Assembly: GCA_046314355.1 (NCBI GenBank) | Contig: JBKBWQ010000001.1 | Span: 352,001-416,000, forward strand | From: Candidatus Altimarinota bacterium | GTDB lineage: Bacteria > Patescibacteriota > Gracilibacteria > 1-14-2-50-48-13 | Direction: 5' to 3' | Length of the DNA stretch: 64,000 nt | Shown here: one piece after another, positions 13,732-52,122 of the stretch | Layout: each line of letters starts with the position of its first letter | Position numbering within the stretch: position 1 is the first letter of the stretch | Program-made: the position numbers and the translations under genes | Notes under the pieces: generated by a model | What the model was told of the DNA's origin: nothing | The model's input: the letters and a program-made list of their open reading frames with translations, nothing else | The model's database searches: none

Positions 13732-14255
13732 ATGTTGTCTGGACCAGAACAAGAACCCCTCTCTCCCTCCTCTCAAAACTCTCTCCAGGATACCTGCCCA
13801 AAGAGATCTTTTTTCAGATGTGCAGATTAAATGTACTTCCTGCCTTTGAGATTATCCCTCTTCGTAGAAAAGAGGGATAGATCGAAGTGTTGCTTATACA
13901 ACGTCCTGAGAACGATCCATTTTGGGCTGGGCAAAGGCCAAGCCTGCTGCCTACAAGTACCCCTAACTCATTTGATGATGTAAAGGAAAGAGTTTTCCAG
14001 GAATTAAATTACTCTGCAGATACAGGCAGTGATGCTATTTATGCAAGTACGGAACTAAAAAGATGGAAACGGGGAATGGTGATCAGTATCTATCATTATT
14101 TAGAATTAGAAGAAACCTCTGGAGTTGGAAAATTCTTCCCTGTGGATGAGCTGCCAGAAAATATAGTGGAGAATCAGGCGGAGATGATAGGGAAGATTGC
14201 GAAGATGTATAAAAGCTCGATGGCTCGGAGTGTGAGTGATAGTGGGAGTATTTAG
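13732..14255 (+). pseudogene. Degraded NUDIX-like gene
   Basis: LLSKLSPGYLPKEIFFQMCRLNVLPAFEIIPLRRKEG*IEVLLIQRPENDPFWAGQ: in-frame TAG at 13878-80 plus a frameshift relative to ATG 13732. Confidence 0.6.
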
Positions 14256-14495
14256 TAGTGAGGGTGATTTTTCTTATGTAGTATATTAAAAAATAGCCCT
14301 ACTAGACTCAAGAGCGTACCGACACACATCTTAACTTTAAGTTTGAGAGTCCCTCTTCGCCATTATAAACAAGGTAACTTACAGTTTAACGTAGGCTACG
14401 AGGGACATTCTTCGCTGTATATTAAAAAAATCTTCGCCTGCGAAGATTCATTCCTTTCTGGCTGTGCCATTCGTAGCTTCGTGAGAAGCGAAGAA
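14215..14495 (-). repeat. tRNA-3'-linked structured element, copy A
   Basis: Begins immediately after the CCA of tRNA-Met; first 105 nt differ at 2 positions from 51188-51292; distal ~50 nt also conserved. Confidence 0.9.
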
Positions 14496-14572
14496 TGGTG
14501 GCTGAATGGAGAGTTGAACTCCAGACCTCGGGGTTATGAATCCCGCGCTCTAACCAACTGAGCTACCCAGCC
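14496..14572 (-). tRNA. tRNA-Met (CAT), probable elongator
   Basis: GGCTGGGTAGCTCAGTTGGTTAGAGC...TTCATAA...TGGAGTTCAACTCTCCA TTCAGCCACCA cloverleaf with encoded CCA. Confidence 0.93.
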
Positions 14573-45804: not shown

Positions 45805-47466
45805 ATGACAATACAAAGCCCTGAGGAGCTTCTCGAACTCTTTCTTGAGGAACAATCCACGAATTCGGATTATATAGCTCCTGAGAGCTATAAATACGTT
45901 ATTTACGTGCGTAAATCACAGGAAAGCCAAGAAAGGCAAGTACGTTCATTAGGTGATCAAGTTGCGGAGTGCAACGCACTTGCAAAAGGTAAATTTAAGA
46001 TAGTAGATATTATTCAAGAATCTGAGTCAGCAAAGGAACCCGGTATCCGTCCTAAGTTCAACAAAATGCTCGAAGACTTCAGGAAAGGAAAGTATGATGG
46101 GATAATAGCTTGGCATCCCGATCGATTAGCTCGAAACATGAAAGAGGGCGGAGAAATCATTGATATGATTGATAAAGGAATTATTAAAGATTTGAAATTT
46201 GTTAGTTATACATTTACCAATGATACATCTGGAAAAATGCTACTAGGTATGGCATTTGTTTTCTCAAAGCAGTATTCAGATAAACTAAGTGATGATGTCA
46301 CAAGAGGTAATCTAAGAAGTCTAGGAGATGGTAAGTTCTTAAATAAAGGTAAACATGGTTATGTTAAAGATAGAAATTTATTACTCAGAGCAGATGGAGA
46401 AAGCTTTATGCTTTTAAAGAAGGCATGGGATATGCGCCTTGATAGTAAGAACCTAGAACAAATTGCTCAGTTTTTAAATGATAATAACTACACAGTTAAG
46501 TACTCTGATAAACATGAGCGTAAAATATTTACAGTTGATAAAAAGTTTTTATCAAACTTTTTTAAAGATCCTTTGTACTGTGGAGTTCTTCATTATGGAG
46601 ATGAATTCGTAAACTTAAATGAGAAATATGATTTTGTACCTATGGTCAGCGCAGAAACATACTGCAAAGTAAATAAGATTAGTACACGTACTTTCAATGC
46701 CAGAAGAACAGAGAAACAATCTATACGAGCTAACTTACTTAGAGGGCAAGTATTCTGTGGGTATTGTGAAGAACCTTTTGTATCAGGCCTTACAAAGAAG
46801 AAAAATGCTGATTCTATCACTGAGTACTATTACTACAGATGTGATAACGACTCTTGTAGTCAGTTAAATAAATCTGTTAGAGCTCACGTAGTAACAAATT
46901 TTGTATATGACTTCCTAGATACTCATTCAATTGCAACTGAGGAAATATATAAGATTTATAAAGAGCAATCATCCATCCTCATTAAAGATAAGATTGCAGA
47001 ACAGGACAGTAGAGCAAAGTCCTTAAATACGAAACTGAATAGTAATGAAGAATCAATTAAAAACACAAAGAGCCTTCTAACTACTATGATAAATAAAGCA
47101 GACTCAGGCGATCATATTATAATACAGGACCTTGAAGATGACTTGAAAAAGCAATTAGCTCTAAAGCATCAGTTGAAACAAGAGATAGATGACGTTCACG
47201 AAGTAAAAAAACAAATCAAGACCGTTATTTTAGATTTAGCGAAATATCTTGAACTTTCTGCGGAATTGCCCTCTAGGATTCGAAAAATAGAGACTATGGA
47301 GAGCCTTGATAAGATCATTGGAAATATCTTCTTGAACTTTTATATTAAGGACAAGAAAGTGACTTCCTATCAGCTAAAAGAGCCTTTTGCATCTTTATTT
47401 AAGGCTTCAATTTCTAAGAAATCGTCTATGGTGGGCCCAGTTGGACTTGAACCAACGACCAATTGA
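45805..47466 (+). CDS. Large serine recombinase (integrase)
   Basis: YVRKSQES...SLGDQ, ESAK, DRLARN, recombinase domain, Zn ribbon CGYC...YYRCDNDSC, coiled coil; last 12 codons overlap the tRNA. Confidence 0.93.
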   Translation: MTIQSPEELLELFLEEQSTNSDYIAPESYKYVIYVRKSQESQERQVRSLGDQVAECNALAKGKFKIVDIIQESESAKEPGIRPKFNKMLEDFRKGKYDGIIAWHPDRLARNMKEGGEIIDMIDKGIIKDLKFVSYTFTNDTSGKMLLGMAFVFSKQYSDKLSDDVTRGNLRSLGDGKFLNKGKHGYVKDRNLLLRADGESFMLLKKAWDMRLDSKNLEQIAQFLNDNNYTVKYSDKHERKIFTVDKKFLSNFFKDPLYCGVLHYGDEFVNLNEKYDFVPMVSAETYCKVNKISTRTFNARRTEKQSIRANLLRGQVFCGYCEEPFVSGLTKKKNADSITEYYYYRCDNDSCSQLNKSVRAHVVTNFVYDFLDTHSIATEEIYKIYKEQSSILIKDKIAEQDSRAKSLNTKLNSNEESIKNTKSLLTTMINKADSGDHIIIQDLEDDLKKQLALKHQLKQEIDDVHEVKKQIKTVILDLAKYLELSAELPSRIRKIETMESLDKIIGNIFLNFYIKDKKVTSYQLKEPFASLFKASISKKSSMVGPVGLEPTTN

Positions 47467-47505
47467 TTATGAGTCAACTGCTCTAACCAACTGAGCTATG
47501 GGCCC
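47429..47505 (-). tRNA. tRNA with CAT anticodon, probable tRNA-Ile2
   Basis: GGGCCCATAGCTCAGTTGGTTAGAGCAGTTGACTCATAATCAATTGGTCGTTGGTTCAAGTCCAACTGGGCCCACCA; Ile2 identity inferred from acceptor and anticodon-arm style. Confidence 0.9.
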
Positions 47506-50946: not shown

Positions 50947-51111
50947 TTTATGATAAAGAAGTTATATTCATATAACGTATGTATACTCAAAAAAGTTACA
51001 TATATTTAAATAACTCTTAATACTCCCACATAGAAATCACACTTTCCCTTGCAAGAAGATCAAATGTGAGTAACATGAACAATGTTTCCAATCGCGTTTG
51101 ACGCGAAATGT

Positions 51112-51187
51112 CGCGGGGTAGAGCAGTTGGCAGCTCGTCGGGCTCATAACCCGGAGGTCATTGGTTCGAGTCCAATCCCCGCAACCA
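51112..51187 (+). tRNA. Initiator tRNA-fMet (CAT)
   Basis: CGCGGGGTAGAGCAG...CGGGCTCATAACCCG...CCCCGCAACCA; C1:A72 mismatch and three G-C pairs in the anticodon stem. Confidence 0.95.
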
Positions 51188-51466
51188 TTCTTCGCTTCTC
51201 ACGAAGCTACGAATGGCACAGCCAGAATGGAATGAATCTTCGCAGGCGAAGATTTTTTTAATATACAGCGAAGAATGTCCCTCATAGCCTACACCTAACT
51301 ATAAGTTTCTGGTTCTTTGTGGCGTAGAGGGACGCCAAAGCATAAAGCATTGAAGTATTTTGGTACGCCTCTAAGTTTATTGTAATTCTTTTTTATAATA
51401 GAATACAAAAATTTACCCCTCACTACTAACTACTCCCACTATCACTCACACTCCGAGCCCTCGAGC
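51188..51466 (+). repeat. tRNA-3'-linked structured element, copy B
   Basis: Homologous over its full length to the reverse complement of 14215-14495. Confidence 0.9.
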
Positions 51467-51473
51467 CTCCTAC

Positions 51474-51510
51474 AAAAACCGGCACCACTCCTTAGAGTGA
51501 TGCCGGTTTT
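51474..51510. terminator. Strong hairpin / terminator
   Basis: AAAACCGGCACCACTC CTTA GAGTGATGCCGGTTTT. Confidence 0.65.
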
Positions 51511-51633
51511 GCGAGTACTCCAGGTCCTTCCTTACCTGAAATACTTATATTCCAATTACCCCAAACTTCTAGAGATAAATATCCTGAGATATTTGTCTCT
51601 CACTTACTTACACAACTAAGACGTAAAAAAGTT

Positions 51634-52122
51634 TCACTTTTTTCTAATCATTATTATCATTGCGTTCACATCACTAGGATTGCCGGGGATATCCCTTCCT
51701 AATACAGAGACATGCATACCTGAAGTAATGTTTGCGAGGGAGAGTTCACGCCCTCCGTCTCTTACTTTTGTCTCAGGTACGAAGAGGACTCTCTTCACAA
51801 CCCTTCTTCCATCCTGAAGGAGTAGGGAACCACTATTCACAGTCTGTACTATTCCGTTCATGGCAAACTTATGGTCTGGTTCTTTTCCAAATAACCCTAC
51901 TGGTCCTTTTGGAAAATCCTCTCTCTGCTTCATACCTGATCCTGTAGGGGGATGATCCTGATTAGGAATTGGAGGAAAATTTTTATTGATGAAAAATGCT
52001 GCGTTTCTTTGAGACTGATGATATCCGACTACATATCCCACAGAAAAAATACCTGCAGTAATAGTACATGCAACTACAGTGATAGCGAAAGCGATAAGTA
52101 TCCGGTGTGAATTAGGATGCAT
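51634..52122 (-). CDS. Single-TM protein with C-terminal DUF5666-like beta domain
   Basis: TM helix, then GIVQTVN...ETKV...ITSGMHVSVLG; operonic with the ECF sigma gene. Confidence 0.6.
   Translation of the reverse strand: MHPNSHRILIAFAITVVACTITAGIFSVGYVVGYHQSQRNAAFFINKNFPPIPNQDHPPTGSGMKQREDFPKGPVGLFGKEPDHKFAMNGIVQTVNSGSLLLQDGRRVVKRVLFVPETKVRDGGRELSLANITSGMHVSVLGRDIPGNPSDVNAMIIMIRKK

Follow-up and report, generated by a model that had tools for sequence, protein, structure and literature searches.

REP, BIME and REPIN sequences are species-specific, lie scattered behind genes of all kinds and are tied to a cognate RAYT (Y1) gene that is itself flanked by REPs. IS200/IS605-type elements and their miniature derivatives carry two end hairpins in the same orientation, which match those flanking tnpA. 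The T-box antiterminator acts from mRNA leaders, where its UGGN pairs in trans with the NCCA end of an uncharged tRNA, and is accompanied by a specifier loop and the T-box sequence. Behind E. coli tyrT, 178-bp repeats with tRNA 3′-end fragments occur at a single locus, are associated with Rho-dependent termination and have no conserved multi-helix fold. The terminators of E. coli proK, proL and proM abut the CCA, and RNase E releases them by one endonucleolytic cut (PMC5291269). Here, we describe an element of about 280 nucleotides (nt) that follows the encoded CCA of two tRNA-Met genes in a 64,000-nt stretch, hereafter the window (C1:352001-416000, where C1 is the contig), of a Candidatus Altimarinota genome of the class Gracilibacteria (G000; a 1.69-Mb assembly, 98% complete). 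The core of this element is a widespread, apparently undescribed folded RNA module at the CCA end of tRNA and transfer-messenger RNA (tmRNA) genes. On sequence-level evidence we propose, with evenly balanced confidence, that tRNA and element are transcribed together and that the element acts as a structured trailer, clasping the CCA end and directing 3′-end formation.

An earlier note on this DNA reported the same element from the first base past the CCA of two Met tRNAs, and both copies, termed A and B, were recovered at the positions given in Table 1. The pattern it described, two conserved ends and a diverged middle, is borne out by the alignment: 2 mismatches in the 105 nt directly after CCA (91/92 positions identical through segment 3, defined below), identities of 20/32 in the variable loop of hairpin P3 and of 31/56 in the stretch after P3, and 65/78 identical positions in the 3′ part, including the end ..CACTCCGAGCC. 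Every hairpin that it named is present in the element, and it was right that no enzyme is encoded there and that CCA linkage is strict and the structure RNA-like. The tRNA-Met of copy B is presumably initiator-like (C1/A72 mismatch, GGG/CCC anticodon stem); a third tRNA-Met of the window (47429-47505, ARAGORN and Rfam calls) is unrelated and lacks the element. In unitigs of the sole DNA run containing the locus, depth is ~20x in unique flanks versus 276-339x over the first ~90 nt, and loose unitig ends at 14498-14501 lead on to the 3′ ends of other tRNAs (Logan unitigs, an independent assembly). Depth and loose ends together fit about 13-17 junctions and speak against a chimeric join; positions 14420-14472 are not spanned by any single Logan contig. 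The sequencing runs listed with the locus comprise this one DNA run, probably the source, and no RNA run.

The core extends from the tRNA CCA to the end of P3. It comprises segment 1 (CCAUUCUUCG(C)), the variable inner hairpin of P1, segment 2 (CU(A/U)CGAAUGG), which runs into the box UGGCAC(N)GCCA(U) that forms the small hairpin P2, a variable linker, segment 3 (GCGAAGAAUG) and P3 itself (GYCCYNC-G(U/A)A-GC..GC-GAA-GNRGGRC), in which the sequence of a 3x3 purine-rich internal loop is conserved. Segment 1 can pair either with segment 2, matching CCA to UGG (state A), or with segment 3, forming helix A, which matches CA to UG (state B). P1 and helix A would compete for segment 1, giving two exclusive RNA states. 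P1 (CCATTC-TTC-GC..GC-TAC-GAATGG) and P3 (CCCTTC-GTA-GC..GC-GAA-GAAGGG) are near reverse complements, an inverted pair of imperfect palindromes, and the box ATGGC-N2-3-GCCAT is palindromic. The copies in this genome add to the core a terminator-like hairpin with U7 in the linker, which displays compensatory changes among the 13 copies described below, a P3 apical loop of ~32 nt (in copy A, a 32-nt variable loop above the 3x3 purine-rich internal loop) and a tail of ~130 nt. The 3′ half contains T-runs, TATAAT-like boxes and a G-free, 7-nt-periodic tract ending in GAGCC.

The predicted folding energy of the core RNA is -48.9 kcal/mol (z = -4.25), and none of 200 shuffles folded as well. RNAalifold of the 13 copies and the single-sequence fold agree on state B, the terminator hairpin and P3. 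The only terminator site called in 50950-51650 is that of copy B (51234-51255 plus T-run), and no sigma-70-like promoter was called in that interval. The core itself differs: at least five T within 8 nt after P3 were found in only 15/65 foreign matches, which does not support P3 as a general terminator. Several other candidate readings were dropped: the 3′ half as a conserved fold (RNAalifold, only -1.1 kcal/mol), TGGCAC as a sigma-54 element (wrong GG-GC spacing, by eye), pairing of segment 2 with the 5′ strand of P3 (no covariation between the two), a T-loop mimic in CUUCGAAU (CUACGAAU takes its place in half the copies) and the G-free tail as a rut site of a Rho-dependent terminator (Rho_RNA_bind was not found in the genome).

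Table 1. Location of the element, its parts and related sequences. Positions refer to the window unless prefixed by C1; R1 is the covariance model described in the text; the rows on further core subfamilies include the variants and the P1-like hairpin named in the text.
Feature	Copy	Position	Strand	Remarks
tRNA-Met (CAT)	A	14496..14572	-	ARAGORN; Rfam RF00005, 60.9 bits
3′ CCA of tRNA-Met	A	14496-14498	-	First 3 nt of core model match
tRNA-Met (CAT)	B	51112..51187	+	ARAGORN; Rfam, 62.5 bits
Complete composite element, ~281 nt	A	14215..14495	-	BLASTn 100% self, 82% to copy B
Complete composite element, ~279 nt	B	51188..51466	+	
Core (CCA to end of P3)	A	14349..14498	-	R1 72.5 bits, E 2.2e-12, model 1-96 (C1:366349-366498)
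Core	B	51185..51333	+	R1 66.9 bits (C1:403185-403333)
Segment 1, CCATTCTTCGC (tRNA CCA + first 8 nt)	A	14488..14498	-	Covariation
P1 inner hairpin GCTTC-TCAC-GAAGC, segment 2 CTACGAATGG, box TGGCACAGCCA (small hairpin P2)	A	14459..14489	-	
Terminator-like hairpin AATCTTCGC-AG-GCGAAGATT + T7	A	14424..14448	-	Lineage-specific insertion in core linker
Segment 3, GCGAAGAATG, perfect complement of CATTCTTCGC	A	14406..14415	-	
Hairpin P3, GTCCCTC-GTA-GCC ... GGC-GAA-GAGGGAC	A	14349..14406	-	
3′ half	A	14215..14348	-	Genome-specific; common to short 'type 2' trailers
G-free 7-nt-periodic tract, ends CACTCCGAGCC	A	14222-14264	-	
Segment 1	B	51185-51195	+	
P1/segment 2/P2	B	51194-51224	+	
Terminator-like hairpin	B	51235-51259	+	
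Segment 3	B	51268-51277	+	
P3	B	51277-51333	+	
G-free periodic tract	B	51417..51459	+	
Further core subfamily		C1:923021-923190	-	
Further core subfamily		C1:1591400-1591460	-	
Further core subfamily		C1:1415391-1415560	+	
Further core subfamily		C1:464704-464766	+	
Further core subfamily		C1:1260979-1261046	+	
Further core subfamily		C1:1406715-1406746	-	

Covariation was counted in 78 model-aligned sequences, the alignment being fitted to state A and P3. State A with the P1 inner hairpin and P3 has 96.2% of cells paired and double changes in 18/20 pairs; the corresponding values with state B are 94.8% and 16/21. In both cases 0/500 shuffles reach the observed values, and slid controls are 25-52% paired. 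Helix A alone presents double changes in 3/7 pairs. Segments 1, 2 and 3 change in concert, as CCAGCC / GGCUGG / ..GCUG in seven loci, and further concerted sets include CACACUCCG / CGGAGUGUG, CAGGCUUCGC / GCGAAGCCUG, CUGCGC / GCGCAG, CUUCAC / GUGAAG and CUACGC / GCGUAG. G-U pairs occur on the tRNA strand only. Compensatory change affects four helices, among them the two exclusive partners of one strand, and the stems that the earlier note had drawn do covary, including both alternative helices with the tRNA's own CA/CCA. This change, the strict sense orientation and the anchoring at CA/CCA suggest that selection acts on a transcript shared with the tRNA.

Although the earlier note knew two copies, BLASTn with the element (without CCA) against the whole genome revealed 13 that start at query base 1, share 77-90% identity and have one composite architecture. 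Six further matches cover just the 3′ module, which is all that five more tRNAs carry. ARAGORN identified 39 tRNAs in the genome, 37 of them on C1, all 37 with an encoded CCA. When the flanks were tabulated, 12 of the 13 copies were found to begin directly past a CCA, each behind a different tRNA (Leu-cag, Leu-caa, Leu-taa, Leu-tag, Ser-gga, two Met, Glu-ttc, Arg-cct, Ala-tgc, Tyr and Cys), on the tRNA strand, and the element stands behind about a third of the genome's tRNA genes. Copy alignments display a left flank that is always ..NCCA and right flanks that are unrelated and lack a direct repeat. Scans across the genome with four sub-motifs, mismatches allowed, located all four in tRNA trailers only, apart from a single match; they placed 12/12 matches of the 3′ end motif, 13/13 of the TGGCAC box region and 13/14 of GTCCCTCGTAGCC in tRNA trailers, the 14th being a 1-mismatch match elsewhere. 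The module is absent behind the genome's own tmRNA (C1:790733-791154).

Between tRNA-Glu(ctc) and the 13th copy (C1:958805), which is found 6.8 kb further downstream, stands an island (C1:951992-958804) that begins with a 562-aa large serine recombinase (Resolvase + Zn_ribbon_recom) and whose junctions have only TCACCA in common. Similarly, a variant core (C1:1060928-1060990) follows a tRNA 3′ fragment 8.4 kb from tRNA-Thr(ggt). Here a tyrosine integrase adjoins the tRNA, and the island (C1:1060990-1069446) comprises two Phage_integrase open reading frames (ORFs) and a DUF2326 protein. With islands standing between tRNA and copy, these orphan copies are best read as displaced trailers. The exact position of the two islands, between tRNA and module, and the palindromic box would also suit a DNA-level site at tRNA gene ends, either a recombination/attachment site or a protein-binding palindrome. 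This explanation is highly improbable, since the G-U pairs are confined to one strand, the four helices display compensatory rather than sequence conservation, and the tyrosine-integrase island duplicated the T-arm/acceptor part of the tRNA, the usual type of tRNA attachment (att) site, and not the module.

Other trailers and core variants were observed in this genome. Trailers of unrelated sequence, termed 'type 2', lie behind Leu-gag (527955), Ser-gct (586823), Asn (721743), Lys-ctt (1009005) and Lys-ttt (1085917), all on C1, with partial forms at tRNA Phe, Ile, Arg-tcg and Val-tac. Their layout is a hairpin 1-2 nt past CCA, 7-nt-periodic GAGTAGTTAGTAATTAGTAC, a T-run and then the G-free tail that the long element also has; a domain of ~90 nt is closed by a long-range helix of 10-12 bp with its anchor at A76. 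G-free 7-nt-periodic tracts (AATTACTN..TGAGCCC) also occur upstream of tRNA Arg-tcg, Lys-ctt, Lys-ttt, Thr-tgt, Ile and Leu-caa, where they directly precede CTTGC(A)-N16-17-TAGAAT-like promoters. A core subfamily (CCAUGAACCAC../GUGGUUCAUG) forms two tandem units behind tRNA-Gln(ttg) and is present at tRNA-His and at an orphan site; other core variants are CCAGUC/GACUGG and a P1-like hairpin that stands alone upstream of tRNA-Gln(ctg). In the window, copies A and B lie 37 kb from each other in inverted orientation, with the two tRNAs between them, and recombination between the copies could invert the segment. A 122-aa ORF (13887-14255, +; no Pfam hit), convergent with copy A, overlaps ~40 nt of the conserved 3′ end and is a candidate ORF only.

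BLASTn with the whole element gave no real match in 40 relatives, indicating that the 280-nt composite is lineage-specific. Scans with a short 16-nt motif returned mostly chance matches, yet brought to light the 5′ motif downstream of tRNAs from other phyla. The gapped pattern CCATTCTTCG-N6-30-CGAATGGCAC matched 84 stretches, 80 of which were examined; at least 57 matches, spread over 56 loci, display the hairpin signature, and the rest look like chance in coding sequence. According to record titles, these taxa include Gracilibacteria, Peregrini- and Peribacteria, Falkow-, Komeili-, Uhr- and Kuenenbacteria, Paceibacter and Saccharibacteria, and also Opitutaceae, Akkermansiaceae, Hydrogenedentes and some 'Gammaproteobacteria' metagenome-assembled genomes, with Verrucomicrobiota among them. 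Copies in records titled as different phyla share ~85% identity.

A covariance model, R1, built from six foreign sequences only, matches 13/13 copies of this genome over the full model (59.2-72.5 bits), from CCA to the end of P3 (positions 1-147 plus CCA), in addition to the tRNA-Asp trailer (32 bits). With this genome included in both samples, R1 matches 42/151 sampled class genomes at E<=1e-3 (34/132 high-quality), mostly with 1-7 copies and with a maximum of 14 in this genome, and 29/151 sampled phylum genomes at E<=1e-4. The 141 matches correspond to 108 non-overlapping and 104 unique sequences, and 64/104 adjoin a tRNA called by ARAGORN. Rfam annotation of 20 other loci revealed that in 13 the module begins at the 3′ CCA of a tmRNA. 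Four more loci point to displacement, with a tRNA-like 3′ end in front of the module and an intact tRNA 114-219 nt upstream; no Rfam hit was obtained for the last three. Tandem second copies start after an internal ..GCCA of the first copy at four loci, and six class loci have short forms devoid of P1 and P2, in which CCA-UUCUUCGC-loop-GCGAAGAAUG is followed by P3. As a separate observation, conserved genes in several class genomes contain TGA codons in frame, a pattern that a recoded stop would produce.

The architecture extends further than R1 detects. In an Opitutaceae genome (G294), 30 distinct tRNAs were examined, 29 of which end in CCA and 28 of which were usable. The search was for a helix that begins at C75 or A76 and, with G-U pairs counted, is perfect over 8 bp or more within 110 nt. 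Such a helix is present in 13/28 tRNAs versus 16/300 random CCA sites of the same loci. Its sequence differs from tRNA to tRNA (CAUGCAUCGC, CACGCAUCGC, CACGUUUCCG, CAUUUUUUCGC, CAGCCUUCGC), and a P3-like hairpin mostly follows; several more, such as Pro-tgg, Gly-tcc and Lys-ttt, conform by eye when a mismatch is tolerated. Identical testing found 18/38 in the present genome (12 long copies, Gln-ttg and five 'type 2' trailers) and 4/30 in a relative of the same family (G002). R1 is biased to the UUCUUCGC variant and the helix test finds more, so R1 undercounts the architecture, and a less sequence-biased model would probably find more carriers. The tRNA trailers of the family relative differ, the module not being at the same tRNAs in family relatives; this relative has a repeat of its own (GGATTCGAAACCAGTG..CCTTCGGGGCTCCGCCGCAGATGAG) 60-90 nt behind at least five tRNAs. 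A search for synteny in metagenome contigs through the neighbouring methyltransferase yielded 3 loci of 40-55% identity, with neither module nor synteny.

The diverse helices of the Opitutaceae genome, together with the presence of the module behind tmRNA, again suggest selection on RNA. Once cut off, the trailer might work in trans as an abundant small RNA (a sponge, antitoxin or protein-binding RNA) that uses the tRNA promoter and processing, as does the E. coli 3′ETS of leuZ, which is expressed via the tRNA promoter and tRNA processing. The compact fold, the conserved purine-rich internal loop, which is typical of protein/RNA docking sites, and the many copies behind strongly transcribed genes are consistent with this. 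However, the sole invariant partner is the tRNA's own CA/CCA, the helix sequences in G294 vary freely, and neither a conserved single-stranded seed nor a conserved partner gene nearby was seen, making a trans-acting role distinctly improbable.

Profile searches of the genome found no RNase_E_G. The best RNase Z match scored 17.8 bits against a cut-off of 293 and lies inside the RNase J ORF; RNase_PH is represented by two domains in one 732-aa PNPase-like ORF, with no separate RNase PH; and Rho_RNA_bind has no match in this 98%-complete genome. RNase III (a 237-aa ORF), RNase Y and RNase J are present, as is a PolyA_pol (CCA-adding) family ORF. Across the class, RNase Z-like matches occur in 9/151 genomes, none over the cut-off.

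From the anatomy, CCA linkage, covariation, distribution and nuclease repertoire described above, we infer transcription through the module, a role in processing and a candidate enzyme. In the proposed structured trailer, the CA of CCA and the first 8-9 trailer nucleotides would form the 10-12-bp helix A with the downstream segment, directly followed by P3 with its purine-rich 3x3 internal loop. In the long form, the inserted P1 would pair the same 5′ segment, now with the whole CCA against UGG. Such a fold is predicted to mark and present the CCA|N junction for endonucleolytic 3′-end formation and may also shield the CCA end in lineages devoid of the usual 3′ pathways. RNase III would be the best candidate enzyme because it cuts duplex RNA and leaves a 3′-OH. 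In this genome, one variant, extended by the terminator hairpin and the G-free tail, has multiplied behind a third of the tRNA genes. A stronger version, which we consider unlikely, is a self-contained 3′-end-forming device. Here the CA-anchored helix on the purine-loop hairpin would act as a ruler, RNase III or the RNA itself would cut after A76 to leave CCA-OH in one step, replacing the RNase Z/E/PH routes in Patescibacteria and some Verrucomicrobiota, and the P1/helix-A switch would time the cut to transcription.

Several observations weigh against a processing trailer. In this genome a canonical terminator hairpin with T7 lies upstream of segment 3 and P3, and efficient termination there would leave the best-conserved part (segment 3/P3, 98% mean identity) out of the RNA. 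The module is dispensable and patchy, with 28% of sampled class genomes carrying it, usually in 1-7 copies, and its tRNAs are not those of family relatives. An anticorrelation between RNase Z and the motif was looked for and not seen, 3/9 RNase Z-like genomes carrying the motif. The alignment behind the covariation counts is model-fitted, with many related rows, and both pattern and model contain CCA. Finally, the identity across phyla, the resemblance of P3 to an inverted P1 and the tandem copies after GCCA fit a selfish repeat equally well.

Such a repeat is the main rival. It would be non-autonomous (REPIN- or MITE-like, after miniature inverted-repeat transposable elements), mobilised in trans by an enzyme, and either homing to the position directly behind the CCA of tRNA-like genes or surviving only there, and it would depend on its hairpins to move as single-stranded DNA or RNA. 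Beyond the three features just named, it would account for the burst of 13 similar copies of one composite architecture, for the patchy occurrence without orthologous placement in relatives and for the lack, in this genome, of any copy away from a tRNA-like 3′ end. If it were true, this would be, to our knowledge, the first bacterial selfish repeat with tRNA/tmRNA 3′ ends as its exclusive site. Nevertheless, no target duplication and no longer, gene-carrying copy was found, including the copy with a nuclease gene that the earlier note had anticipated. The genome has two copies of an IS200-type Y1_Tnp gene, one intact and one frameshifted (C1:772701-773060(-) and 827760-828114(+)), with tnpA end hairpins (CCCCGGAG..CTCCGGGG) unrelated to the ends of the element, and no Cas12f1-like_TNB domain, and hence no TnpB, was found in it. 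Y1_Tnp occurs in 22/42 motif-bearing versus 44/109 motif-free class genomes, a cross-tabulation in which kin are not independent, and in one of these relatives (G016) an IS200-like copy merely adjoins a core copy. A link to Y1/HUH transposases is not supported by these observations. In viral contigs, none of the 80 matches listed is true, all being chance in coding-like sequence. Moreover, the helices of G294 vary by tRNA yet keep the CA anchor, unlike recent copies of one element. A selfish repeat appears rather unlikely, and it and a structured trailer are not mutually exclusive. As a side observation, eight class genomes have Y1_Tnp-like stretches inside 950-1800-aa frames.

The earlier note left the choice between a mobile element and a cis RNA module. 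While both are possible, the leads to a mobile element failed and the evidence leans to a cis RNA module, because the core is conserved across phyla and also stands behind tmRNA genes, both CA/CCA helices covary, and helix sequences differ behind 13/28 tRNAs of G294. The route by which bacteria without RNase E/G, RNase Z and RNase PH form 3′ ends on tRNAs with gene-encoded CCA is a question that concerns much of bacterial diversity. For this step, a portable module that recurs across phyla and would grip the CCA end of tRNAs and tmRNA offers a concrete, testable substrate. It also constitutes a sizeable RNA family to annotate, with 1-14 copies in about a fifth to a quarter of sampled Patescibacteria.

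Comparison with described families returned no known counterpart. Rfam 15 (an Rfam search was among the checks proposed in the earlier note) identified only three tRNAs in the window, 0 hits at E<=1 at the orphan locus and only tmRNA/tRNA at the 20 foreign module loci, and thus no described family. Self-cleaving ribozymes (HDV-like, hatchet) gave no Rfam match, and cleavage activity of the module is predicted at most. No description was found in the literature searched, which did not extend to subscription journals and supplements, where a prior description is possible. A DDE-type MITE does not fit, as the left flank is always ..NCCA and the right flanks are unrelated and without direct repeat. 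As with IS200/IS605 elements, a short fixed sequence stands on the 5′ side of the module, this site is not duplicated, and the biology suggested is hairpin-dependent and strand-specific; a miniature derivative would share its hairpins with tnpA, but the tnpA copies in G000 and G016 carry different ones. REP and REPIN sequences resemble it in their inverted imperfect palindromes, many copies, transcription at gene 3′ ends and compensatory stem changes. In contrast, the module is tied to tRNA/tmRNA CCA ends, is shared across phyla and is not linked to Y1_Tnp, and neither dispersal behind all kinds of genes nor a Y1 gene flanked by the repeats was found. With the T-box it shares a UGG of a bistable RNA that pairs with the tRNA CCA end, although the module pairs in cis within the tRNA's own trailer rather than in an mRNA leader, and no T-box was hit by Rfam in the window or at the orphan locus. 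The tyrT repeats are likewise a repeated unit directly downstream of a tRNA gene, whereas no Rho domain was found in this genome. The proK, proL and proM terminators share with the module a structured trailer directly after the encoded CCA, and their release by one endonucleolytic cut instead of trimming is the mechanism proposed here. They are ordinary and gene-specific terminators, whereas the module is a multi-helix, cross-phylum structure that pairs with CA/CCA, has two alternative states, stands also behind tmRNA and is present in a genome without RNase E/G.

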